Assembly: GCA_036149055.1 (NCBI GenBank)
Contig: JAYZQJ010000079.1
Span: forward strand, 9,669 to 73,668
Origin: Myxococcota bacterium
GTDB lineage: Bacteria > Myxococcota_A > Polyangia > Polyangiales > Sandaracinaceae
Length of the DNA stretch: 64,000 nucleotides
Reading direction: 5' to 3'
How positions within the stretch are numbered: position 1 is the stretch's first letter; the number at the start of each line of letters is the position of its first letter. The notes beneath the pieces are model-generated. The model had not been told where the DNA came from, ran no database searches, and saw only the letters and a list, made by a program, of their open reading frames with translations. Of the stretch, positions 31,279 to 40,381 are shown piece after piece. The position numbers and the translations under genes are program-made.

Positions 31279-31470
31279 GCGGAACAAGCTATTCACGGTG
31301 GCGGTGATGACCAAGCTCGCGCTCCTCGCGCCGGGCTGCATCGAGGTCGATCCGACCCTCGACGGCGCGGCCCGCGACGCGGGGCCGAGCGACGCGAGCA
31401 CGACGGGGGCGGAGGAGGGGCTCCGGGCGGAGGACGGGGCGGAGGAGTGAACGGAGAGGCGGGGGCGGAT

Positions 31471-31613
<143 letters not shown>

Positions 31614-31640: not shown

Positions 31641-32720
31641 CTAGAGCGTCAGGGCAAAACCGACACGCAACGCCGTCGCCAACCCCGTCGTCGCCACCAC
31701 CGGCTCCGGGCCGGCGAGGCCGCGGTGGCCCAGCAGGGTGACGCCCAGGTCCAGGTCTCCGAAGATCGCGAAGCGCTCGGACGGAGACACGGCCACGCGC
31801 GCGGTGGCGGCGAGGGCGACGCTCGCGCCCTGTCCTCGGCGGGTGCTTCCTTCGGTGGGGCGGCCGGCGAGGGTCGCGTAGCCGACGTCGACGCGCACGC
31901 CGGGCGCGAGCGCGAGCCAGGGGGTCGGCTCGAGGCGAACGGCGGCGAGCAGGCCCGCGGTCAGGAGCCAGAGCTCGGCCTGCCCGCTCGGGTGGTCGCC
32001 CGACGCGAAGCTCGCGCCCACGTCGAGGCCGAAGCGGAGCGGGCGCGGGAGATCGAAGACCGCCCCGACCCGGGCCCCGAGCGGCCAGGTCCCCGACTCC
32101 GGGAAGCCGCGGGCCTCGAAGGCGATCCAGAAGGCGCCGAGCCGCTCGGGCGGGGGCGGCGGCGCCTGCGGCTCGGGCGGGGGCGGAGACGGCAGGGGCA
32201 CCACGAGGCTCCGGGTGGCCGGCGGGCGGGCGGGCTCGGCCGAGGGAGCCTCGGGGGTGGGCGTGGCCGGGCGCCCGGTCTCCCGCTCCCGCTCCGCGAT
32301 CAGGTGCTGGAGCCGGGCCTGCTCGGCCGCGGCGACCGCCATCGTGCGGGGGCGCATCTCGGCGGCGAGCTCGGTCATGTCGACCGACTGATGCACGCTC
32401 GGGCCCCCGGCGGCCGCGACCACCACGAGCACCGTGCCCGTCTCCCCGCAGCCGGCGCGGAAGTGCACGATCAGCGGCGCCTCGGGCGCCGTCTCCTCGG
32501 GGCCGAGGGTCACGACGGTCACCTCCTCGATGCCGGCGAGGCCGAGCTCGAGGCGGAGCAGGCGGGCGAAGCGGGGGCCGCCGAACGGCGGGTCGCAGCG
32601 CGGCACGAGCACGGTGGCCGCGCGCGCGGGGGCCTCCGCCTGGGCCAGTGCCGAGGTGTGCGAGAGGAGCGCGGCTACGGCGAGGAGGCCGGCGCCCAGT
32701 GCGTGACTTGTTCCGCCCAA
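31641..32720 (-). CDS. Exported protein with probable C-terminal outer-membrane beta-barrel
   Basis: Signal peptide ending ALAQ; Pro-rich linker; amphipathic beta strands ending RVGFALTL. Confidence 0.7.
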   Translation of the reverse strand: MGGTSHALGAGLLAVAALLSHTSALAQAEAPARAATVLVPRCDPPFGGPRFARLLRLELGLAGIEEVTVVTLGPEETAPEAPLIVHFRAGCGETGTVLVVVAAAGGPSVHQSVDMTELAAEMRPRTMAVAAAEQARLQHLIAERERETGRPATPTPEAPSAEPARPPATRSLVVPLPSPPPPEPQAPPPPPERLGAFWIAFEARGFPESGTWPLGARVGAVFDLPRPLRFGLDVGASFASGDHPSGQAELWLLTAGLLAAVRLEPTPWLALAPGVRVDVGYATLAGRPTEGSTRRGQGASVALAATARVAVSPSERFAIFGDLDLGVTLLGHRGLAGPEPVVATTGLATALRVGFALTL

Positions 32721-33916
32721 CGTCCGTCCGGGTGGCGGTCATGATACTCGGCGGCCGCCGCGCGCGCCTCCGTGGCCCGGCCCGCCCGGGTCAGCGCCTC
32801 GACCCGCATCGCGCGTGCGTCCTCCGCGAGCGCGCCGGGCAGGCCGAGCGCGAGGGCGCGGGCGAGCGCCTCGGCCGCCTCCGCCGGCTGGTCCAGGCGC
32901 CGCAGCGCGAGCCGGCCGAGGGTGACCGCGGCCATCGCGCTCCGGGCGTCCCGAGGGTGCTCCGCGAGGAGGCGGCGCAGCGCCGCGGCCGCGTCCGAGG
33001 GATCGCCCCCGGCGCGCGCGGCGTCGGCCCGCTCCCAGAGCGCGTCGGCGCTCGGGCCCCGAGGCCGCCGCGTGGAGGGGCGCGGCGGCGCGGGCTCCGC
33101 CTCGACGAGCGCCTGCTCGGCGTGGACGGGCGTCGCCTCGTCCGCCGCCGCCTCGTCCGCGGCCGCCTCGTCCGCCGCCGCCTCGTCCGCGGCCGCCTCG
33201 TTCGCCGCCGCCTCGTCCGCCGCCGCCTCGTCCGCGGCCGCCTCGTCCGCCGCCGCCTCGTCCGCCGCCGGCTCGTCGACCATCGTGCCTTCGCGCGGCG
33301 CGTCGGCCGCCTCTCCGGCGAGGGCCAGGGGCTCCGTGTCGCCCACCCGGACCGACTCTCCGGCCGTCAGCCGGGTCACGCCGTCGTCCAGGTCCTCGTG
33401 GCGGACCAGGACCACCCCGCGCTCGACCTCGACGTCCACCCGGTCGCCGTCGCGCCGGACCGTGAACACGGTGCCGACGACCTCGACCCGGGCGCCGGCC
33501 TCGATCACCCAGCGCCGGGGCCCGCCCGGGGTCACCTCGAAGCGGGCGACGCCGTGGGCCAGCCGGAGCGCGACCCGCTGACCCGAGCTCTCGAGCACCT
33601 CGAGGTCGGCGTCGGCGCCGAGCTGCAGGCGCGAGCCGTCGGACAGGTCGACCACCGGGCCCTCGACGCGATCGAAGGCGCCGCCGTCGACGAGGGTCAG
33701 CGCCTCGGGCGCGTCCTCCCGCCCGAGCACGAAGAGGGCGACCGCGGCGGCGGCGGCGAGCGCGCCGGCGACCTTCCAGCCGGCCCGACGAGGGGGCGAG
33801 GTGCGGCGCCGGGCCGCGATCGCGCGCCAGTTGTCGTTCAGGCGCGCCTCGTCGACCGCGTCCTCGGTGAGCGCGCGCAGCGTCGGCGTCTCTCGGTCAG
33901 GGCTCACGTCGTCCAT
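32675..33916 (-). CDS. FecR-family anti-sigma factor with acidic repeat linker and TPR-like C-terminus
   Basis: TM helix; LSDGSRLQL, VEVVGTVFTV, VERGVV FecR motifs; helical C-terminus ending YHDRHPDG. Confidence 0.85.
   Translation of the reverse strand: MDDVSPDRETPTLRALTEDAVDEARLNDNWRAIAARRRTSPPRRAGWKVAGALAAAAAVALFVLGREDAPEALTLVDGGAFDRVEGPVVDLSDGSRLQLGADADLEVLESSGQRVALRLAHGVARFEVTPGGPRRWVIEAGARVEVVGTVFTVRRDGDRVDVEVERGVVLVRHEDLDDGVTRLTAGESVRVGDTEPLALAGEAADAPREGTMVDEPAADEAAADEAAADEAAADEAAANEAAADEAAADEAAADEAAADEATPVHAEQALVEAEPAPPRPSTRRPRGPSADALWERADAARAGGDPSDAAAALRRLLAEHPRDARSAMAAVTLGRLALRRLDQPAEAAEALARALALGLPGALAEDARAMRVEALTRAGRATEARAAAAEYHDRHPDGRWAEQVTHWAPASSP
33135..33277 (-). repeat. 15-bp coding tandem repeat (ADEAA, about 10 units) inside fecR
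   Basis: GCCTCGTCCGC(C/G)GCC units. Confidence 0.9.
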
Positions 33917-34530
33917 CCTCTCCCCGAGCGCGCGACGTCGATCGCGCTGTCCGCGGCGCTCAGGCGTCGCTTCATCGTCGCGGTGGAGCAGTCGACCGCG
34001 TCGGCGGTCTCGCGGATCGACCAGCCCTCGACGCGGTGGAGGAGCCAGACCAGGCGCTGCTCCACCGGCAGGGTCGCCAGGATGCGATCCAGCTCTGCCA
34101 GCTCCGCCCGCAGATCCGGGCGCGTCCCGTCGACCGCCCGGGCCGCGAAGCCCGCGTCGTCGACCCCGCGGTCGAGGTGCACCAGCTGCAGCAGCTTGCG
34201 GCGCCGGAGATGCCGTCGGACCTCGTTCAGCGCGATCCGCGAGACCCACGCCCGGAACGCGCTCCCCGCCCGGAGCGTCTCGAGCCGCCCGAAGGCGATG
34301 ACGAAGGTGTCCTGCACGATGTCGTCGGCGTCCGCGTGCCGACCGACCAGGCGCACGACGGCGGAGGTCACCGCGGCCGCGTGGCGACGATAGAGCGCCT
34401 CCTCGGCCCAGCGATCGCCGCCCCGGGCGCGCTCCACGAGCGTTTCGTCATCGATACCCTCGGCCACCGCGGCGGGCCTCCCTTCGCGGGAGACCAGCGC
34501 GAGCATCCTCGGGCGCTCAGGGTCGGTCAC
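33904..34530 (-). CDS. ECF RNA polymerase sigma factor
   Basis: DADDIVQDTF, FRAWVSRIALN, LPVEQRLVWLL..EG.S..ETA. Confidence 0.92.
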   Translation of the reverse strand: MTDPERPRMLALVSREGRPAAVAEGIDDETLVERARGGDRWAEEALYRRHAAAVTSAVVRLVGRHADADDIVQDTFVIAFGRLETLRAGSAFRAWVSRIALNEVRRHLRRRKLLQLVHLDRGVDDAGFAARAVDGTRPDLRAELAELDRILATLPVEQRLVWLLHRVEGWSIRETADAVDCSTATMKRRLSAADSAIDVARSGRGWTT

Positions 34531-34538
34531 GACGTCAG

Positions 34539-34566
34539 GATGCGCGGCGGCGCGCGAAATGGCTCA
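34539..34566 (-). promoter_or_regulatory. Putative ECF promoter for the sigma/fecR operon (TGAGCC-N16-CGCATC)
   Basis: Same motif and spacing as the divergent copy; ends 8 nt before the GTG start. Confidence 0.65.
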
Positions 34567-34578
34567 TATTCTCGAAAG

Positions 34579-34606
34579 TGAGCCAGCCCCGGCCCATCGC
34601 CGCCTC
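34579..34606 (+). promoter_or_regulatory. Putative ECF promoter for the lipoprotein operon (TGAGCC-N16-CGCCTC)
   Basis: Mirror copy of the minus-strand motif; ends 10 nt before ATG 34617. Confidence 0.65.
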
Positions 34607-34616
34607 CTCCCCTCGG

Positions 34617-36575
34617 ATGCTCAGGACTCTCCTCCTCGCCCTGCTGCTGGGCGGCTGCGCGGTCGATCACGACCTGCTGGCGGTCGACGCCGGGCGCGGG
34701 GACGCGGGCCCGATGGCCGACTCGGACGGAGACGGGATCCGCGACCTCGACGAGGGCGCGCCCGAGCGGGACACCGACGGCGACGGCACCCCCGACTTCC
34801 TGGACCTCGACAGCGACGACGACGGCATCCCCGACGCGCGCGAGGCCGGGGACGACCGCCTCGCCACCCCGCCGCGGGACTCCGACTACGACGGCGAGCC
34901 GGACTTCGTCGACCTCGACAGCGACGACAACGGCATGCCGGACGCGGTCGAAGGGGAGGGCGACTACGACCTCGACGGGGTCCCGAACTACGCCGACCTC
35001 GACGACGACAACGACCTGGTGCTCGACCGGGTGGAGCTCGACGGCGTGCTCGACCCGCCGATCGACTCGGACGGCGACGGCCGGCCGAACTTCCGCGACA
35101 ACGACAGCGACAACGACCGCATCCTCGACGGCGACGAGCACGGCGCCGACACCGACGGCGACAGCCTCGACGACTCCGAGGACCTCGACTCCGACGGCGA
35201 CGGGATCTCGGACATGCGCGAGGCGGGAGACGACGATCTCTTCTCGCCGCCGTTCGACACCGACGGCGACGGCATCCCCGACTTCCGCGACCTCGACAGC
35301 GACGCCGACGGGCTGACCGACCTCAGCGAGGTCGAGCGCGGCACCAGCCCGACCGACGCCGACACCGACGGCGACGGAGTCTCCGATCTCATCGAGCGCG
35401 CGGCGGGCACGGACCCGAACGACCCGCGCGTCAGCCCGCTCACCCGCGGCGACTTCGTGTTCGTCGTCGACTACATGGCGGAGCCCGATCCCCCGGTCGA
35501 CACCCTCGAGTTCCGGACGAGCATCCAGTTCGCCGATCTCTACTTCCTCTTCGACGTGACCTCGTCGATGCGGACCGAGCTGTCGACTCTGCGCGCCGCG
35601 ACCACGAGCCTCCTCTCGAACCTCACCTGCAACGAGACCGGCTTCTCCTGCGACACCGACGCCGACTGCGCGGCGGGGCTCGTGTGCAGCCTGACCGGGA
35701 GCTGCACCGAGGACCCCACGCGCGGCTCGTGCATCGCCAGCCCCTGGAGCGGCGGCGGCTACTTCACGTCCACCTTCGTCAACCTCCTGCCCCTGCAGGC
35801 GGTGCCGGAGGCGACCCGGGCGGCGCTCGAGACGACGGCGACCGGCTCGGTGGAGGAGCTCTTCGGCGCGGCCTGGTCGGTCGTCGACCCCGGGGGCTCG
35901 CCGGGGAGCGAGTCGGGCTGCGTGAGCGGCGCCGCCAGGCTGGGCTGCGTGGGCTTCCGGCCGCAGGCGGTGAAGATCCTGGTGGCCTTCACCGACGAGG
36001 ACAGCGACGGCCTGGTGACCGCGACCCAGGCCGGGCGCGCGCTCCGCGACGCGGGGGTCACCCTGCTCGGGGTGTGGAGCGGGGACCCGGCGAGCGCCGA
36101 GCGCGCCGACCTCGAGGCGCTGGCCCGGGAGAGCGGCTCCCTCGACGCCAGGGGCGCGCCGCTGGTGTTCGACGGCCGGGACGCGGCGGTGGTGCCGGCG
36201 GTGGCCGACGCCATCCAGGAGCTCGTGCGCGGGGTCCCGCTGCGGGTGCGCATCGAGGCGAGCGAGGAGGACGGCGACGACGGCGACGCGCTCCAGTTCA
36301 TCGACCACCTCGAGGTCAACGTCGGCGGCGGAGCCTGTTCGGCCGTGGCTCCGGTGGAGGACGGCGACGGCGACGGGCGCCCCGACGTGTTCGGGGCCCT
36401 GGTGCCCGGCACGCCGGTCTGCTGGGACGTGCATCCGGCCCGCAACGACGCGGTGCCGCGGCAGATCGAGCCCCAGGTGTTCCGGGCGAGGCTCACCGTC
36501 TACGGCGACGACTCTCCGCTGGACTCGCGCATCGTCTACTTCCTGATCCCGCCGCGCATCGCGCTCCCGGGGTGA
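34617..36575 (+). CDS. Lipoprotein with thrombospondin-3-like Ca-binding repeats and VWA-like domain
   Basis: Lipobox LGGC; many DxDGDGxPDxxDLDSDxDG repeats; DLYFLFDVTSSM MIDAS-like motif. Confidence 0.85.
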   Translation: MLRTLLLALLLGGCAVDHDLLAVDAGRGDAGPMADSDGDGIRDLDEGAPERDTDGDGTPDFLDLDSDDDGIPDAREAGDDRLATPPRDSDYDGEPDFVDLDSDDNGMPDAVEGEGDYDLDGVPNYADLDDDNDLVLDRVELDGVLDPPIDSDGDGRPNFRDNDSDNDRILDGDEHGADTDGDSLDDSEDLDSDGDGISDMREAGDDDLFSPPFDTDGDGIPDFRDLDSDADGLTDLSEVERGTSPTDADTDGDGVSDLIERAAGTDPNDPRVSPLTRGDFVFVVDYMAEPDPPVDTLEFRTSIQFADLYFLFDVTSSMRTELSTLRAATTSLLSNLTCNETGFSCDTDADCAAGLVCSLTGSCTEDPTRGSCIASPWSGGGYFTSTFVNLLPLQAVPEATRAALETTATGSVEELFGAAWSVVDPGGSPGSESGCVSGAARLGCVGFRPQAVKILVAFTDEDSDGLVTATQAGRALRDAGVTLLGVWSGDPASAERADLEALARESGSLDARGAPLVFDGRDAAVVPAVADAIQELVRGVPLRVRIEASEEDGDDGDALQFIDHLEVNVGGGACSAVAPVEDGDGDGRPDVFGALVPGTPVCWDVHPARNDAVPRQIEPQVFRARLTVYGDDSPLDSRIVYFLIPPRIALPG

Positions 36576-36608
36576 CGGTGACCGATCGGTGCGTCATGGT
36601 GACGGCCG

Positions 36609-37796
36609 ATGTCTCTCCCTCGCGGCGCGCTCGCTTGCCTCGCGGCGCTCGTCGTCGGCTGCGTGGACGCCCCCGACACCGAGCCCGCGCCGCTCGACGC
36701 AGGCTGGCCCGACGCGCGGCCGGTGACCCACGGCGCCGTGGTGGTCGGCGCGGTCCGCTACGAGGATCGCGTCTTCGACGAGGGCGGCTTCACCGGGGCG
36801 CTCGAGGCCCGGCCCGCGCGGCGGGTGCGCGTGCAGCTCTGGCGCGACGACGCGCTGCTCGCGGAGGGCTTCACGGAGGACGACGGCGGCTTCGTGCTGC
36901 CGCTGGGGGACGAGACGCGCGCCGACGAGACCCTGCGGGTGGTGGCGCGGGCCGAGGCGGCCTACGAGGGGCACACGGTGCGGGTCGCCGACCGGGCGCG
37001 CGCCGCCTCGGTGTACGCGCTCGAGGCCGAGGGGAGGGCGGACGCGCGCTTCGAGCTGATCGCGCGCGCCGACGACGTGGGGGGCGCCTTCAACGTGGTC
37101 GACGTCTCGGTCGACGCCTTCGCGCTCTACGCGCCTCACGTGGCCGCGCCCGCGCCGACGCTCACCTACCGCTGGGAGCGGGGGCGCGCGTACGACTGCG
37201 GCTCCTGCTACGGGGACGACGAGATCAGCCTCGGCGGCGGCTTCGACGACACCGACGAGTACGACGACGACATCGTGCTGCACGAGCTCGGTCACTACTT
37301 CGTCGACCACTACGGCCGGGACACCTCGCCGGCGGGGGCGCACCGGGACCGTCAGGTCGAGCCGGAGCTCGCCTACGGCGAGGGCCTCGCCTACTTCTTC
37401 GCGGCGATGGTCACCGGCCGGCCGATCATCGTCGACACCTTCCGCGGCTCGAACCGGGTGATCGACCTCGAGCGGCTGCTCCAGAACGGCGAGGCCAAGT
37501 CGGACTTCCGAGGGGTGACCGCGGACGGCCGGCTCCGCGAGGAGATCGTGGCCGGCGTGCTCTGGGACGCCTACGACGCCGACAGCGCCGAGGAGCCCTT
37601 CGACCGGGTGGCGATCGGCCGGGACGGAATGATGCGGGTGCTGGTCGACCACTTCGGCGCGGACCGCGTCTGGCGCTCGATCGTGCTCGACGACTTCCTG
37701 GAGGCGCTGGTCTGCGTGGCCGGCGTGCCGGAGGACGACGCGGAGGCGCTGGCCGCGGATCGGGCCTACCCGTGGTCCCCAGCCGGGTGTCCGTGA
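36609..37796 (+). CDS. Lipoprotein zinc metallopeptidase
   Basis: Lipobox VVGC; VLHELGH (HExxH) plus downstream AYGEGLA. Confidence 0.75.
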   Translation: MSLPRGALACLAALVVGCVDAPDTEPAPLDAGWPDARPVTHGAVVVGAVRYEDRVFDEGGFTGALEARPARRVRVQLWRDDALLAEGFTEDDGGFVLPLGDETRADETLRVVARAEAAYEGHTVRVADRARAASVYALEAEGRADARFELIARADDVGGAFNVVDVSVDAFALYAPHVAAPAPTLTYRWERGRAYDCGSCYGDDEISLGGGFDDTDEYDDDIVLHELGHYFVDHYGRDTSPAGAHRDRQVEPELAYGEGLAYFFAAMVTGRPIIVDTFRGSNRVIDLERLLQNGEAKSDFRGVTADGRLREEIVAGVLWDAYDADSAEEPFDRVAIGRDGMMRVLVDHFGADRVWRSIVLDDFLEALVCVAGVPEDDAEALAADRAYPWSPAGCP

Positions 37797-37822: not shown

Positions 37823-38689
<867 letters not shown>

Positions 38690-38734: not shown

Positions 38735-40381
38735 ATGGGGCTGCTCGATCCGGAGCCGACGCCGTACGATCCGCTCGCCTGGCGTCGGATGCCGCTCGCC
38801 GAGCGGGGCCGGCTGGTGTGCGAGGCCTGGGCGATGCAGGGCTACGGCGCGCCCCTCGGCATCTACCTCGCGTACGGGCTCAAGGTGCTCGCCTACGTGG
38901 GCGGCTGGGTCTTCTTCTGCGGCTTCTCGCCCAGCCTCGGGCCGCCGCTCGAGATCGCCTCGTGGTGGCTCGCGCCGCTCGCGTTCCAGAAGGCGATCCT
39001 CTGGAGCATGCTCTTCGAGGTGCTCGGGCTCGGCTGCGGGAGCGGCCCGCTCACCGGGCGCTACTTCCCGCCGGTCGGCGGCTTCCTCTACTTCCTCCGC
39101 CCCGGGACGACCAAGCTGCCGCTCTTCCCGCGGGCGCCGCTCGTCGGCGGGGTGACGCGCAGCTGGCTCGACGTCGGGCTCTACGCGGCGCTCGTCGGCG
39201 TGCTCGTCGCGCTGCTCACCGCGCCCACCCTCGAGCCGCGGCTGCTGATGGCGGTGGCCGCGCTCGTCCCGATCCTCGGCGTGCTCGACCGCACGCTCTT
39301 CCTCGCGGCCCGCGCCGAGCACTACTGGGTCACCGTCGTCGTCTTCCTCTTCGCCGGCGACTGGATCGCGGGGGCCAAGGCGGTGCAGCTCGCGCTCTGG
39401 TTCTTCGCCGGGTTCTCCAAGCTCAACCATCACTTCCCCACCGTGGTGTGCGTGATGACCAGCAACGGCCCGCTCACCCGCTTCCGCTGGCTGCGCCGCC
39501 GCATGTACCGCGACTTCCCGCGCGACCTCCGCCCGTCGCGGCTCGCGGTCGTGCTCGCGCACCTCGGCACCGCGCTCGAGCTGGGCGTGCCCCTCGTGCT
39601 CGTCTTCGCGCCCGCCGGTGACCTCCTCGTCGTCGGCATGATCCTCATGCTCCTCTTGCACGGCTACATCACCAGCAACGTGCCGATGGGCGTGCCCATC
39701 GAGTGGAACGTGATGGTCGTCTACGGCGCGTTCGCGCTCTTCTGGGCGCACCCCGACGTCACGATCCTCGACCTCGGCTCGGCGCCGCTCGCGGTCTTCC
39801 TCGCGCTCGCGCTCGTGGCGCTGCCGCTCGCCGGCAACCTCCTGCCCGAGCGCCTCTCGTTCCTGCTGTCGATGCGCTACTACGCGGGGAACTGGGCCTA
39901 CTCGGTCTGGCTCCTGCGCGAGGGCAGCCACGTGAAGCTCGCCAAGCTCCGAAAGTCGTCCGGCTGGATCTACGACCAGCTCGCCCGCTTCTACGACGAG
40001 GGCACCGCCGTCGGCCTCGTCGGCAAGGTGCTCGGCTTCCGGCTGATGCACCTCCACGGCCGGGCCCTGCCGCTGCTCATCCCGAAGGCGGTCGACCGCT
40101 TCGAGGACTACGAGTACCTCGACGGCGAGCTGATCGCGGGCATGGCCCTCGGCTGGAATTTCGGCGACGGCCACCTCCACGACGAGCGCCTCCTGTCGGC
40201 CATCCAGGCGCAGTGCGGCTTCGAAGAGGGCGAGCTCCGATGCGTCTTCGTCGAGTCGCAGCCGCTGGGCCGCGGGCGCCTCGCCTACCGCATCGTCGAC
40301 GCGAAGACCGGGGAGCTCGAGCGCGGCGCCCTCGACGTCGCCGAGCTCCGTACCCGTCAGCCCTGGGCGGCCGAGGCGTGA
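38735..40381 (+). CDS. DUF3556-family membrane protein
   Basis: FEVLGLGCGSGPLTGRY, FLAARAEHY, SKLNHHFP, PMGVPIEWN, SMRYYAGNW, GWNFGDGHLH. Confidence 0.82.
   Translation: MGLLDPEPTPYDPLAWRRMPLAERGRLVCEAWAMQGYGAPLGIYLAYGLKVLAYVGGWVFFCGFSPSLGPPLEIASWWLAPLAFQKAILWSMLFEVLGLGCGSGPLTGRYFPPVGGFLYFLRPGTTKLPLFPRAPLVGGVTRSWLDVGLYAALVGVLVALLTAPTLEPRLLMAVAALVPILGVLDRTLFLAARAEHYWVTVVVFLFAGDWIAGAKAVQLALWFFAGFSKLNHHFPTVVCVMTSNGPLTRFRWLRRRMYRDFPRDLRPSRLAVVLAHLGTALELGVPLVLVFAPAGDLLVVGMILMLLLHGYITSNVPMGVPIEWNVMVVYGAFALFWAHPDVTILDLGSAPLAVFLALALVALPLAGNLLPERLSFLLSMRYYAGNWAYSVWLLREGSHVKLAKLRKSSGWIYDQLARFYDEGTAVGLVGKVLGFRLMHLHGRALPLLIPKAVDRFEDYEYLDGELIAGMALGWNFGDGHLHDERLLSAIQAQCGFEEGELRCVFVESQPLGRGRLAYRIVDAKTGELERGALDVAELRTRQPWAAEA

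Follow-up and report, generated by a model that had tools for sequence, protein, structure and literature searches.

A widespread myxobacterial ECF sigma factor module in which a predicted small outer-membrane barrel may stand in for the TonB-dependent receptor

Information can pass across the outer membrane without TonB, as in the RcsF-OMP-IgaA system, in which it is carried by a lipoprotein and a β-barrel, with general porins serving as the barrel and a phosphorelay as the output. In signaling of the FecI-FecR-FecA type, as described in the parts of the reports on which we drew, the periplasmic part of the anti-sigma factor FecR is made up of a FecR/CJM and an STN subdomain (PMC7186176), FecR cleaves itself at Gly181-Thr182 (PMC12036975), and the signaling domain of FoxA protects FoxR at rest (PMC11637429). 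Among classified ECF sigma factors (Casas-Pastor et al. 2021, PMC7826278), the closest published group to the one studied here is, as a candidate assignment judged by its description, ECF267, which comprises 28 proteins from Sorangium and Chondromyces, with promoter motifs that are "not conserved" and one to three kinases nearby. FecR-TPR anti-sigma factors without a FecA-like receptor have already been noted for ECF267, and the section of that paper describing the group mentions neither a barrel at position +2 nor a lipoprotein. ECF210, with members in Sorangium, Sandaracinus and Chondromyces, is another candidate group for our sigma factor, its entry in the same source describing no anti-sigma factor or motif. 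Neither of the ECF267 genera is found among the listed matches to our module that carry a genus name.

The locus lies in a 64,000-nucleotide stretch of DNA, which we call the window. Its features are as follows.

31641-32720, minus strand: third gene of the module; TTG start, signal peptide, 359 aa
31644-32141, minus strand: predicted OmpA/OmpW/NspA-like eight-stranded barrel, residues 194-359, alternating hydrophobic strands
32271-32630, minus strand: third protein's N-domain, residues 31-150; helix 122-144 is its predicted means of binding to the groove of the TPR
32675-33916, minus strand: FecR-TPR anti-sigma gene; 413 aa, PF04773 at residues 89-169, TPR_6 at residues 291-321
33470-33475, minus strand: Gly148-Thr149 of the anti-sigma factor, invariant in 86/86 aligned homologues
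33904-34530, minus strand: ECF sigma factor gene; GTG start, 208 aa, Sigma70_r2 and Sigma70_r4_2
34531-34616: divergent spacer of 86 bp between the sigma and TSP3/VWA lipoprotein genes
34539-34566, minus strand: predicted autoregulatory promoter; −35 TGAGCC (34566-34561), 17 nt, −10 GCATC (34543-34539), 8 nt to the GTG
34567-34578: AT-rich gap of 12 bp between the two −35 boxes
34579-34606, plus strand: predicted divergent promoter; −35 TGAGCC (34579-34584), 17 nt, −10 GCCTC (34602-34606), 10 nt to the ATG
34617-36575, plus strand: gene for a TSP3-repeat/VWA-like lipoprotein, 652 aa; swappable fourth gene of the module
34656-34679, plus strand: lipid Cys14 and then Leu20-Leu21 of that lipoprotein, a short aliphatic N-terminal tag
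36609-37796, plus strand: lipoprotein gene 33 nt past the TSP3 gene; HExxH motif, weak Ig-like match

The sigma and FecR genes overlap by 13 nt, and the FecR and third genes by 46 nt. All five open reading frames, and the same motif on both strands of the spacer, were found where the initial annotation had placed them. Compared across loci from the window's genome and 53 relatives (103 loci in all), the sigma/anti-sigma/third-gene set is a conserved and widespread myxobacterial module, present in up to eight paralogues per genome; named relatives among the matches listed are Sandaracinaceae, Polyangium fumosum, P. aurulentum, Archangium and Cystobacter. The order sigma, FecR-TPR, third gene is kept in 74 of 87 full-length loci, an anti-sigma factor resembling FecR and fused to TPRs is at +1 in 82, and all four domains were detected in 61. 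The 13 loci in which this arrangement was not detected comprise eight where the third gene was not picked up at +2 and five where FecR or TPR went unmatched; the third gene is missing from paralogue C8.

The 208-aa protein matches Sigma70_r2 (E 7.6e-16) and Sigma70_r4_2 (E 1e-10) but not a sigma3 domain, and is, from this domain content, an ECF sigma factor (group IV sigma-70). Its recognition helix is nearly invariant (S182, A184, T185, K187 and R188 in 97-103 of 103), an invariant sigma-4 helix being paired with an invariant −35 motif. TGAGCC is found no more than 230 nt upstream of the sigma gene in 90 of 101 homologous loci, versus 2-6 of 96-103 in each of eight control windows and six among 65 unrelated ECF loci, a single orthologous acidobacterial site accounting for five of the six. 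With some nine-tenths of the related copies preceded by it, this conserved motif is likely the module's promoter. TGAGCC and the −10 box are 16 nt apart in 85 of the 90 loci and 17 nt apart in the window's four-member clade, with a G 22 nt past the first T in 76/90 and a C at 26 nt in 83/90; the family consensus is TGAGCC(G)-N16/17-G[GC]N[ACT]C, in which the conserved −10 is the pentamer G[GC]N[ACT]C. The two spacer copies had initially been read as TGAGCC-N16-CGCATC (minus strand, 34566-34539) and TGAGCC-N16-CGCCTC (plus strand, 34579-34606), boxes whose leading C proves to be spacer, the conserved −10 starting at G. A scan for TGAGCC-N16-CGCMTC, which had been suggested, is borne out for the TGAGCC core only; the exact two-box pattern shows no genome-wide enrichment (21 matches at N16 vs. 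21 at N14 and 23 at N19, in a 73% GC genome), and it misses most of the family because the −10 box is paralogue-specific.

The −10 box co-varies with residues N102, R105 and R106 in region 2.4 of the sigma factor. A second, back-to-back TGAGCC copy is present in 41 of the 90 loci, the other 49 having a single copy. The middle three −10 bases are identical within the locus in 21/41 cases (null mean 3.5), and in 15/21 after removal of close kin (null 2.1), while a spacer control showed no excess within-locus identity. Residue 105 follows −10 position 3, Arg occurring with a purine in 35/39 and His with a pyrimidine in 37/42, and residue 106, the top column for position 2, corresponds, counted from the conserved Trp, to RpoE Asn84, a tested specificity residue. 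Set against descent, this residue-base code amounts to two or three independent pairs only (sign test p about 1), and it is mismatched in the clade L048-L058, whose own promoters are GGATC-type and whose divergent side has GCATC. The two promoters in the window differ at position 3 (GCATC vs. GCCTC), the plus promoter having a single mismatch to the sigma factor's own −10, a C where Arg105 prefers a purine. An autoregulatory ECF promoter on both strands, as first proposed, is backed by TGAGCC conservation together with within-locus −10 matching. Within a genome, the −35 would be common to the paralogues, and their −10 boxes would insulate them.

On the divergent side, the gene encodes a lipoprotein in 36/39 loci, and its start codon is 8-10 nt past the −10 in 29/39; on the sigma side, this distance is found in only 32/89. 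The sigma-side transcript in the window is likely leaderless, judging from the promoter position. A contig from an RNA run (34520-35009) spans the whole spacer, which strictly leaderless divergent starts would not yield. Cover from this run is present in all 30 bins, suggesting DNA in the library.

The anti-sigma factor has a short cytoplasmic N-domain, Arg43-Arg44, a transmembrane helix (about 49-65), the FecR domain (89-169), an acidic linker of Glu-Ala-Ala-Ala-Asp repeats and a C-terminal region (about 291-410) that matches TPR families, where classical FecR has its STN subdomain. Gly148-Thr149 is likely, by alignment and analogy, the equivalent of the FecR self-cleavage site, and cleavage there is putative. 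No TonB-dependent receptor was found within about 4 kb in any of the 103 loci. The window's genome encodes 11-12 such receptors, none of those found having an STN match; the genome's sole STN match falls in a pilus-type operon, on a secretin-like gene. This is consistent with the receptor-independent layout of the initial annotation. The module fits poorly into the class of FecIRA-type TonB-dependent signaling, as there is a predicted eight-stranded barrel in place of a transducer with an N-terminal STN, and a FecR domain followed by TPRs in place of FecR/CJM plus STN; the Gly-Thr motif of that class is shared.

Across the alignment of the third protein, neither Pfam nor NCBIfam gave a significant family. 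The structural model (pLDDT 91.2, and 94-99 over the barrel) has a signal peptide, a periplasmic α/β N-domain ending in a long helix, a Pro-rich linker and a barrel of eight antiparallel amphipathic strands, as in OmpA/OmpW/NspA-like proteins. The barrel resembles OmpA by Foldseek (E 8.8e-7), and VIA gives a Z of 17.8 with an rmsd of 2.9 over 158 aligned residues. We thus predict a small outer-membrane β-barrel protein, as had been claimed from the sequence. For the N-domain, compared with periplasmic domains of the TolB-N/LptE/PelC/LpoB kind, Foldseek returns LptE (E 1e-4) and PelC (E 5e-4), with TM 0.33-0.44 by query, VIA reaches a best Z of 8.1 among unrelated α/β folds, and Atlas leads score 0.85-0.86 only.

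Modeled together, the N-domain and the TPR obtained a complex score of 0.87, the best of three controls scoring 0.00, with at least 46% contact agreement between runs and a partner pLDDT of at least 78. The mark for this score is reached by 116/157 solved and 2/215 mismatched pairs, counts that are rough for a self-made alignment, and since TPR-helix complexes are common among solved shapes, the pass may partly reflect likeness. The interface holds the most conserved residues of both sides (D298, R301 and R335 of the anti-sigma factor, R125 and E133 of its partner), while, averaged over the whole predicted interface, conservation exceeds that of the remaining residues only slightly (entropy 1.95 vs. 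2.03 and 2.40 vs. 2.53). The periplasmic N-domain is therefore predicted to bind the anti-sigma TPR; of the barrel protein-FecR contact initially suggested, contact with the anti-sigma factor is retained in the model, but via N-domain and TPR rather than barrel or FecR domain.

Since a predicted outer-membrane barrel protein is predicted to grip the anti-sigma factor, surface signaling without the usual TonB-dependent receptor is likely. Comparison of the sequences establishes the gene order, the fixed-spacing motif, the paralogue-matched −10 boxes, the divergent lipoprotein, the invariant Gly-Thr and the lack of a nearby receptor. We consider it reasonably probable that the barrel protein clamps the anti-sigma TPR through its periplasmic domain and that release frees the sigma factor for TGAGCC-N16/17-G[GC]N[ACT]C promoters. 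By analogy with Fec/Fox, the anti-sigma factor would self-cleave at Gly148-Thr149, the bound partner would protect it at rest, a signal would detach its C-terminal fragment, and site-1 and RseP cleavage would set the sigma factor free. The latter would transcribe its own operon and the divergent lipoprotein gene, leaderless transcripts giving positive feedback. The input is most likely the state of the co-regulated lipoprotein at the outer membrane, which is the weakest step of the scheme.

A neighboring lipoprotein was found in only 65/103 loci. The short aliphatic tag of the TSP3/VWA lipoprotein occurs in 24/37 divergent lipoproteins, being absent from 13, vs. 99/1123 genome-wide; among TSP3/VWA homologues, judged by eye, it is present in 3/3 module-coupled and 4/50 uncoupled proteins. 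We infer that it is a candidate docking strand. The HExxH gene is likely co-transcribed with the TSP3 gene, and its motif is presumably that of a metallopeptidase. A lipoprotein of this kind is beside the module in only 2/103 loci, both from one genus, so that it is not part of the module; what had been taken for a target is a local passenger. Tentatively, and with distinctly less confidence than in receptor-free signaling itself, the module may be a four-part myxobacterial surface-sensing platform composed of a swappable tagged lipoprotein, a barrel, a FecR-TPR anti-sigma factor and a sigma factor with phased, leaderless, back-to-back promoters. Any lipoprotein gaining an aliphatic strand after its lipid Cys would dock on the dedicated barrel, whose periplasmic helix would hold the anti-sigma factor; the freed sigma factor would amplify its operon and its sensor, with a shared −35 TGAGCC and a readable −10 code insulating paralogues. 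If true, transmembrane signaling here would be energy-independent and its sensors swappable, and the sigma/promoter pairs would be a naturally occurring orthogonal set.

The same wiring could have a different meaning, namely envelope-quality or export feedback, in which the barrel protein signals that it has itself been assembled or that its lipoprotein has been delivered (RcsF/OMP-like or as a dedicated display pore), and the lipoprotein is output or cargo, with no external ligand. The divergent lipoproteins are mutually unrelated (TSP3, Kazal, FG-GAP, metallophosphoesterase, aspartyl protease), 26/35 having no Pfam match, which leaves the adhesion or predation role first suggested without support and suits a cargo. 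In three genera, a remote GCATC promoter pair drives two exported proteins, one of them START/polyketide-cyclase-like, and RcsF is a precedent for lipoprotein/OMP stress sensing. However, the regulons found are small, and up to eight paralogues per genome with distinct −10 boxes and cargo better fit many specific inputs, and we regard feedback as rather doubtful. Improbable is classical signaling in which a gene elsewhere supplies the TonB-dependent transducer and the small barrel is accessory. The FecR domain, the Gly-Thr site and the twin Arg (56/85 anti-sigma factors) are kept, the genome has receptors to offer, and paralogue C230 is upstream of DUF4856, imelysin, HTTM and a TonB-dependent receptor; but the anti-sigma factor lacks the STN subdomain needed for transducer binding, its TPR has a predicted occupant in the third protein, the receptor and STN searches described above argue against a transducer, and the best Fur-box match in the spacer, scored against the consensus, is 9/19.

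Slightly less probable again is a reading in which TGAGCC serves not as the −35 but as a half-site for a separate activator that dimerizes or loops. Gaps between inverted copies cluster at 11-13, 23, 33-34 and 44 bp, an 11-bp phase (R 0.70, a value reached by 0/3000 jittered sets), and the 14 nt upstream are AT-rich (42% vs. 29%). Against this, gaps range from 0 to 76 bp, more than half of the loci are single-copy, the invariant motif matches the invariant sigma-4 helix, and every copy is accompanied, at a constant 16-17 nt, by a −10 of its own that follows sigma region 2.4; the phasing may reflect a shared co-activator or co-operating polymerases. Least probable of all is that, as has been put forward for ECF267 (PMC7826278), phosphorylation by a Ser/Thr kinase controls the sigma factor, in which case the FecR-TPR protein would not target it: at G000:C81, a kinase gene has a predicted promoter ahead of it, but a kinase is found in only 10/103 loci within about 4 kb (that paper counted 10 genes on each side), and a FecR domain follows the sigma gene in 84/87 full loci.

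The favored receptor-free module resembles RcsF-OMP-IgaA, without any claim of homology, in that a lipoprotein and a barrel are proposed to act together without TonB, and differs in having an anti-sigma output and a dedicated, co-encoded barrel instead of a phosphorelay and general porins. [quoted passage not shown] DdvS-DdvA of Myxococcus xanthus, in the portion of the report used here (PMC11506125), likewise pairs an ECF with a single-pass anti-sigma factor bearing periplasmic TPRs, with RseP-type release (inferred for our module); DdvA, however, combines a zinc anti-sigma domain with a CHAT protease and has no FecR domain, the system controls a CBASS/CRISPR island, and that portion describes no outer-membrane partner. 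Finally, compared with what the consulted accounts say of FecI-FecR-FecA and Pseudomonas Fox/Pup (PMC12036975, PMC7186176, PMC11637429), the module has the same combination of a sigma factor, a single-pass FecR-domain anti-sigma factor with Gly-Thr, and an outer-membrane barrel protein, with contact to the anti-sigma C terminus predicted for its N-terminal periplasmic domain. In contrast to these systems, its barrel is eight-stranded and plug-less rather than a TonB-dependent transporter, no transport function or energy coupling is evident, TPRs replace the STN subdomain, an α/β N-domain with a long helix replaces the STN signaling domain, and the target is a lipoprotein.

The five open reading frames and both promoter-like motifs of the initial annotation were all borne out at the coordinates claimed for them. 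The genes are as follows:

31641-32720, minus strand, third gene ("barrel gene"; predicted periplasmic N-domain and outer-membrane barrel)
32675-33916, minus strand, FecR-TPR anti-sigma
33904-34530, minus strand, ECF sigma
34617-36575, plus strand, TSP3/VWA lipoprotein
36609-37796, plus strand, HExxH lipoprotein

The sigma and FecR genes share 13 nt, the FecR and third genes share 46 nt, and the two motifs, each a TGAGCC -35 element followed by a -10 pentamer, end 8 and 10 nt ahead of their respective start codons. Low-complexity hexamer repeats occupy the intergenic stretch directly past the barrel gene (31470-31610), and further hexamer repeats at 37900-38130 encode the Glu/Thr/Ser tract of a protein that is exported and has a weak glycine-zipper match (37871-38689). 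The neighboring Memo-like protein (PF01875, 30436-31278) and DUF3556 membrane protein (38735-40381) lie outside the module as seen.

When counted genome-wide, the exact two-box motif initially described showed no enrichment, with 21 matches at N16, 21 at N14, and 23 at N19, near-equal numbers that are a codon-phase pattern. The exact pattern alone is not rare, and we built the case on homologues. Close sigma homologues (E ≤ 1e-30) were found in 62 of 151 genomes searched order-wide (a tally that includes G119, a genome left out of the analysis), among them 21 of the 22 genomes of the family. From a listing of 132 places we analyzed the best 100, which lie in 53 other genomes, together with three loci from the genome of the window (G000). 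Of the 101 scorable loci, 90 have TGAGCC no more than 230 nt upstream of the sigma core, whereas each of eight control windows gave 2-6 among 96-103. In 13 loci no exact TGAGCC is usable, and 8 of these have a site with one mismatch ahead of a -10-like box. Among 80 named loci, a FecR or TPR gene lies downstream in 15 (three of these 15 apparently repeat loci counted before), and TGAGCC is present in 12 of the 15 versus 6 of 65 unrelated ECF loci; the latter come from a sigma pattern scan of the named genomes, in which the matches listed were mostly unrelated ECFs and served as negative controls. Alignment on TGAGCC places a G 22 nt downstream in 76/90 loci and a C 26 nt downstream in 83/90, which gives a family motif of TGAGCC(G)-N16-G[GC]N[ACT]C; the spacer is 17 nt in the window and in the three relatives closest to it. 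The observation is real and conserved, in gene order and motif alike, as the statistics of both show. In the open (non-subscription) literature searched, we found neither the barrel partner nor the motif described, nor the lipoprotein tag taken up below, and neither TGAGCC nor GAGCC matches the supplement text of PMC7826278 that precedes its tables. Tables S1-S5 of that paper may bear on the motif, and it may already stand in the datasets of PMC7776599.

The sigma-4 helix is nearly invariant, likewise the -35, and the -10 varies in step with the sigma. Because the -10 follows the sigma and the -35 matches a nearly invariant sigma-4 helix, the motif reads, at the sequence level, as the promoter of this sigma. 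A second, opposite-facing copy is present in 41/90 loci, and the paired -10 boxes have identical middle three bases in 21 of these 41 (null mean 3.5, maximum 12), or in 15/21 versus a null of 2.1 once sigmas more than 62% identical are removed; the spacer positions of the paired promoters, used as a control, show no excess identity. The C149 paralogue in G000 has GGAAC on both strands, and the window has GCATC/GCCTC. Residue 105 of the sigma best predicts -10 position 3 (Arg with a purine in 35/39, His with a pyrimidine in 37/42) and residue 106 best predicts position 2. Counted from the conserved Trp, residues 102 and 106 occupy the positions of RpoE Asn80 and Asn84, the second of which is reported in PMC7776599 to determine the -12 and -13 bases. 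A phylogenetically independent test of this residue-base code offered only two to three contrasts, and was thus underpowered, with significance out of reach. One clade breaks the -10 matching with mismatched promoter pairs, and the plus promoter of the window, which departs from the code at position 3, may therefore be weaker or serve a paralogue as well. Distances between paired -35 elements cluster at 11-13, 23, 33-34, and 44 bp, which amounts to a phase of 11 bp (R 0.67-0.70; 0/3000 jittered sets as high) and might reflect polymerases that co-operate or a co-activator common to both promoters. A palindrome of fixed spacing was rejected.

The divergent gene starts 8-10 nt after the -10 in 29/39 loci, as does the sigma gene in 32/89, distances that would fit leaderless transcripts. 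RNA runs from two studies cover the stretch as contigs without strand, start, or level; their cover is spread across all 30 bins, and one contig bridges the whole spacer. Such a contig either reflects DNA in the library, which is likely, or counts against strictly leaderless starts.

Genes in loci of lower GC escaped the first gene caller, so we took the composition of the module from six-frame HMM searches. FecR and TPR domains follow the sigma in 82/87 full-length loci, the third gene is also present in 74/87, and all four domains are found in 61/87. No TonB-dependent receptor was found in the 103 loci by profile, and the same profile recovers 12 in G000, where the sole STN match is a secretin-like gene of a pilus-type operon. 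Gly148-Thr149 of the anti-sigma is invariant among homologues and probably corresponds to the self-cleavage site of FecR, Gly181-Thr182 (PMC12036975); a twin Arg precedes the membrane helix in 56/85. The C terminus is a TPR, whereas PupR has there an STN subdomain that, according to PMC7186176, is required for binding its transducer. About nine tandem 15-bp repeats (33120-33270) encode the acidic linker from the FecR domain to the TPR; its length differs greatly from one homologue to another and may determine how much of the periplasm is spanned.

The third protein, which belongs to no Pfam or NCBIfam family, was initially taken for a β-barrel, and its structural model agrees (pLDDT 91.2), with an α/β N-domain containing a long helix, a Pro-rich linker, and a predicted eight-stranded barrel like those of OmpA, NspA, and OmpW, whose strands show membrane-type alternation. 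A single-sequence search returned three matches only, so a profile was required; 3604 clusters (50% identity) match at E ≤ 1e-10. The Atlas neighbors are unnamed Myxococcota clusters, and in a sample of the phylum the protein matched 22/201 genomes, all of the same class, about half of them over the barrel part only. The N-domain (residues 31-150) bears a weak likeness to LptE, PelC, and TolB-N, and a PDB sequence search with it gave nothing below E 0.06; a tyrosine-phosphatase Pfam match in 1/64 members was taken as chance. Co-folding this domain with residues 66-413 of the anti-sigma scored 0.87 (best control, 0.00), the mark used being reached by 116/157 solved and 2/215 mismatched pairs and roughly valid here, where we used our own alignments. 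Runs share at least 46% of contacts, with partner pLDDT of at least 78. In the predicted complex, the long helix (122-144) sits in the TPR groove (298-406). The contact proposed between FecR and the third protein is thereby predicted in part, as one between TPR and N-domain, with the FecR domain absent from the confident contacts. The predicted interface holds the most conserved residues of both partners, its mean conservation barely exceeding background, and inter-protein covariation over 60 paired rows was noise-dominated (only 2/25 predicted contacts reached z 2.5). The model supports, and does not prove, binding of the anti-sigma to the N-domain.

The divergent gene encodes a lipoprotein in 36/39 loci, and any adjacent lipoprotein is found in 65/103, the cargo being unrelated between loci. 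TSP3/VWA is the cargo of the clade of the window, and the HExxH peptidase had to be dropped as a conserved part, since it follows the TSP3/VWA lipoprotein in 2/103 loci (a first gene caller count, maybe slightly too low). What recurs is a tag of two aliphatic residues 5-9 places past the lipid Cys, in 24/37 divergent lipoproteins (kin kept; two rows dropped, one with an undetected lipobox and one mis-framed) versus 99/1123 genome-wide. In an independent gene call, the tag is present in 22/31 promoter-paired and 2/11 unpaired divergent genes, in 9/18 lipoproteins directly after the module, and in 0/13 upstream co-directional ones. By eye, it occurs in 3/3 module-coupled TSP3/VWA homologues, which are close kin, versus 4/50 uncoupled ones, several with a doubtful Cys call.

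The regulon is small. A PWM scan of the genome, which yields leads and under whose filter the plus-strand site of the window itself falls, scored 23/5424 TGAGCC sites at 6 or above, and 60 starts lie 34-38 nt past TGAGCC, modestly more than the 11-43 seen with 20 permuted hexamers. TGAGCC lies 35-42 nt before the start of remote TSP3/VWA lipoprotein paralogues at C240:25683, C253:6935, C163:4370, and C167:46075; the C240 site is kept in a same-genus genome, in an orthologue (L297) that our script left unflagged. Of 68 TSP3/VWA homologues examined in relatives, 15 had no callable start, and the script flagged 5 of the 53 scorable, three of them module-coupled and two either wrongly spaced or missing the -10; we therefore rejected a regulon that takes in TSP3/VWA genes broadly. 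One remote target (G000:C57:11240/11241) is well supported:

G000:C57:11214-11267 (loci L223, L304), both strands, abutting back-to-back promoters, gap 0-2 bp across orthologues

With the orthologues L302 (genome G319) and L306 (genome G081), all six -10 boxes are GCATC, orthologous genes are kept, and starts follow 8 nt later in G000 and 8-10 nt later across orthologues. These promoters, presumably under a GCATC-type paralogue of the sigma, drive two exported proteins, one START/polyketide-cyclase-like and the other unannotated; no sigma gene was seen near them in the stretches examined. Lower-confidence motif sites lie at G000:C81:20637, C45:2680, C51:3846, and C74:65800, ahead of what are presumably genes for a Ser/Thr kinase, an ExbB/TolQ-like protein, an MlaC-like protein, and another gene.

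Variants of the module were also seen. At L147 (Polyangium fumosum DSM 14668), all parts and the motif are present. In L101 and L133, the barrel gene is divergent, upstream of the sigma and not at +2; in L136, L137, L141, and L197, the anti-sigma TPR is present and the FecR domain undetected, with an exact TGAGCC in 3/4; and G000:C8:38549-40556 has a family sigma, FecR-TPR, and promoter (GCGTC), with a small upstream gene and no adjacent barrel gene. In G000:C230:1-8600 (L228), whose sigma lies beyond the contig end, a FecR-TPR/barrel pair is followed by DUF4856, imelysin, HTTM, and TonB-dependent receptor genes, which look like an iron-uptake operon. Given this position upstream of an imelysin/HTTM/TonB-receptor operon, a link to iron is possible in the C230 clade. 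More distant sigma/anti-sigma clusters of G000, each with a probable barrel gene, which is often first, are as follows:

C286:26454-29345, distant cluster
C225:4454-7495, distant cluster
C260:39034-41806, distant cluster
C178:25988-28868, distant cluster
C198:12271-15031, distant cluster
C149:57386-60326, distant cluster
C29:24668-29972, distant cluster

No TGAGCC was seen in the upstream stretches examined for them, so other promoters are likely.

For the signal, the direction of control, and the cleavage, we infer the following scheme. At rest, the periplasmic helix of the barrel protein would hold the TPR and shield the self-cleaved anti-sigma, a protection modeled on that of FoxR by the FoxA signaling domain, as described in PMC11637429. 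Some event at the outer membrane, in which the tagged lipoprotein is the most likely intermediary, would release the TPR, leading to site-1 and RseP cleavage of the anti-sigma, and the freed sigma would then exert positive feedback.

Textbook accounts pair FecR-type anti-sigmas with TonB-dependent receptors. The module would act like FecIRA-type signaling, and since it lacks two defining features of that type, we do not class it as a member. The current ECF classification (PMC7826278) contains a myxobacterial FecR-TPR group without receptor, known input, or promoter. Our analysis adds a candidate outer-membrane partner, whose family has no Pfam model, along with a predicted interface in which individual residues are named and a likely promoter whose bases are linked to sigma residues by a candidate code. 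This promoter permits reading the regulons of many paralogues and makes the system directly testable by reporter assays, both in a heterologous host and in carriers that are in culture, P. fumosum for example. For ECF267, the same paper describes regulation by FecR-TPR, no receptor, and no conserved promoter; compared by description, the module resembles it in having FecR-TPR and no receptor, whereas the promoter is conserved here. If the barrel indeed transduces without TonB, it would represent a second wiring of the cell surface to a FecR anti-sigma.
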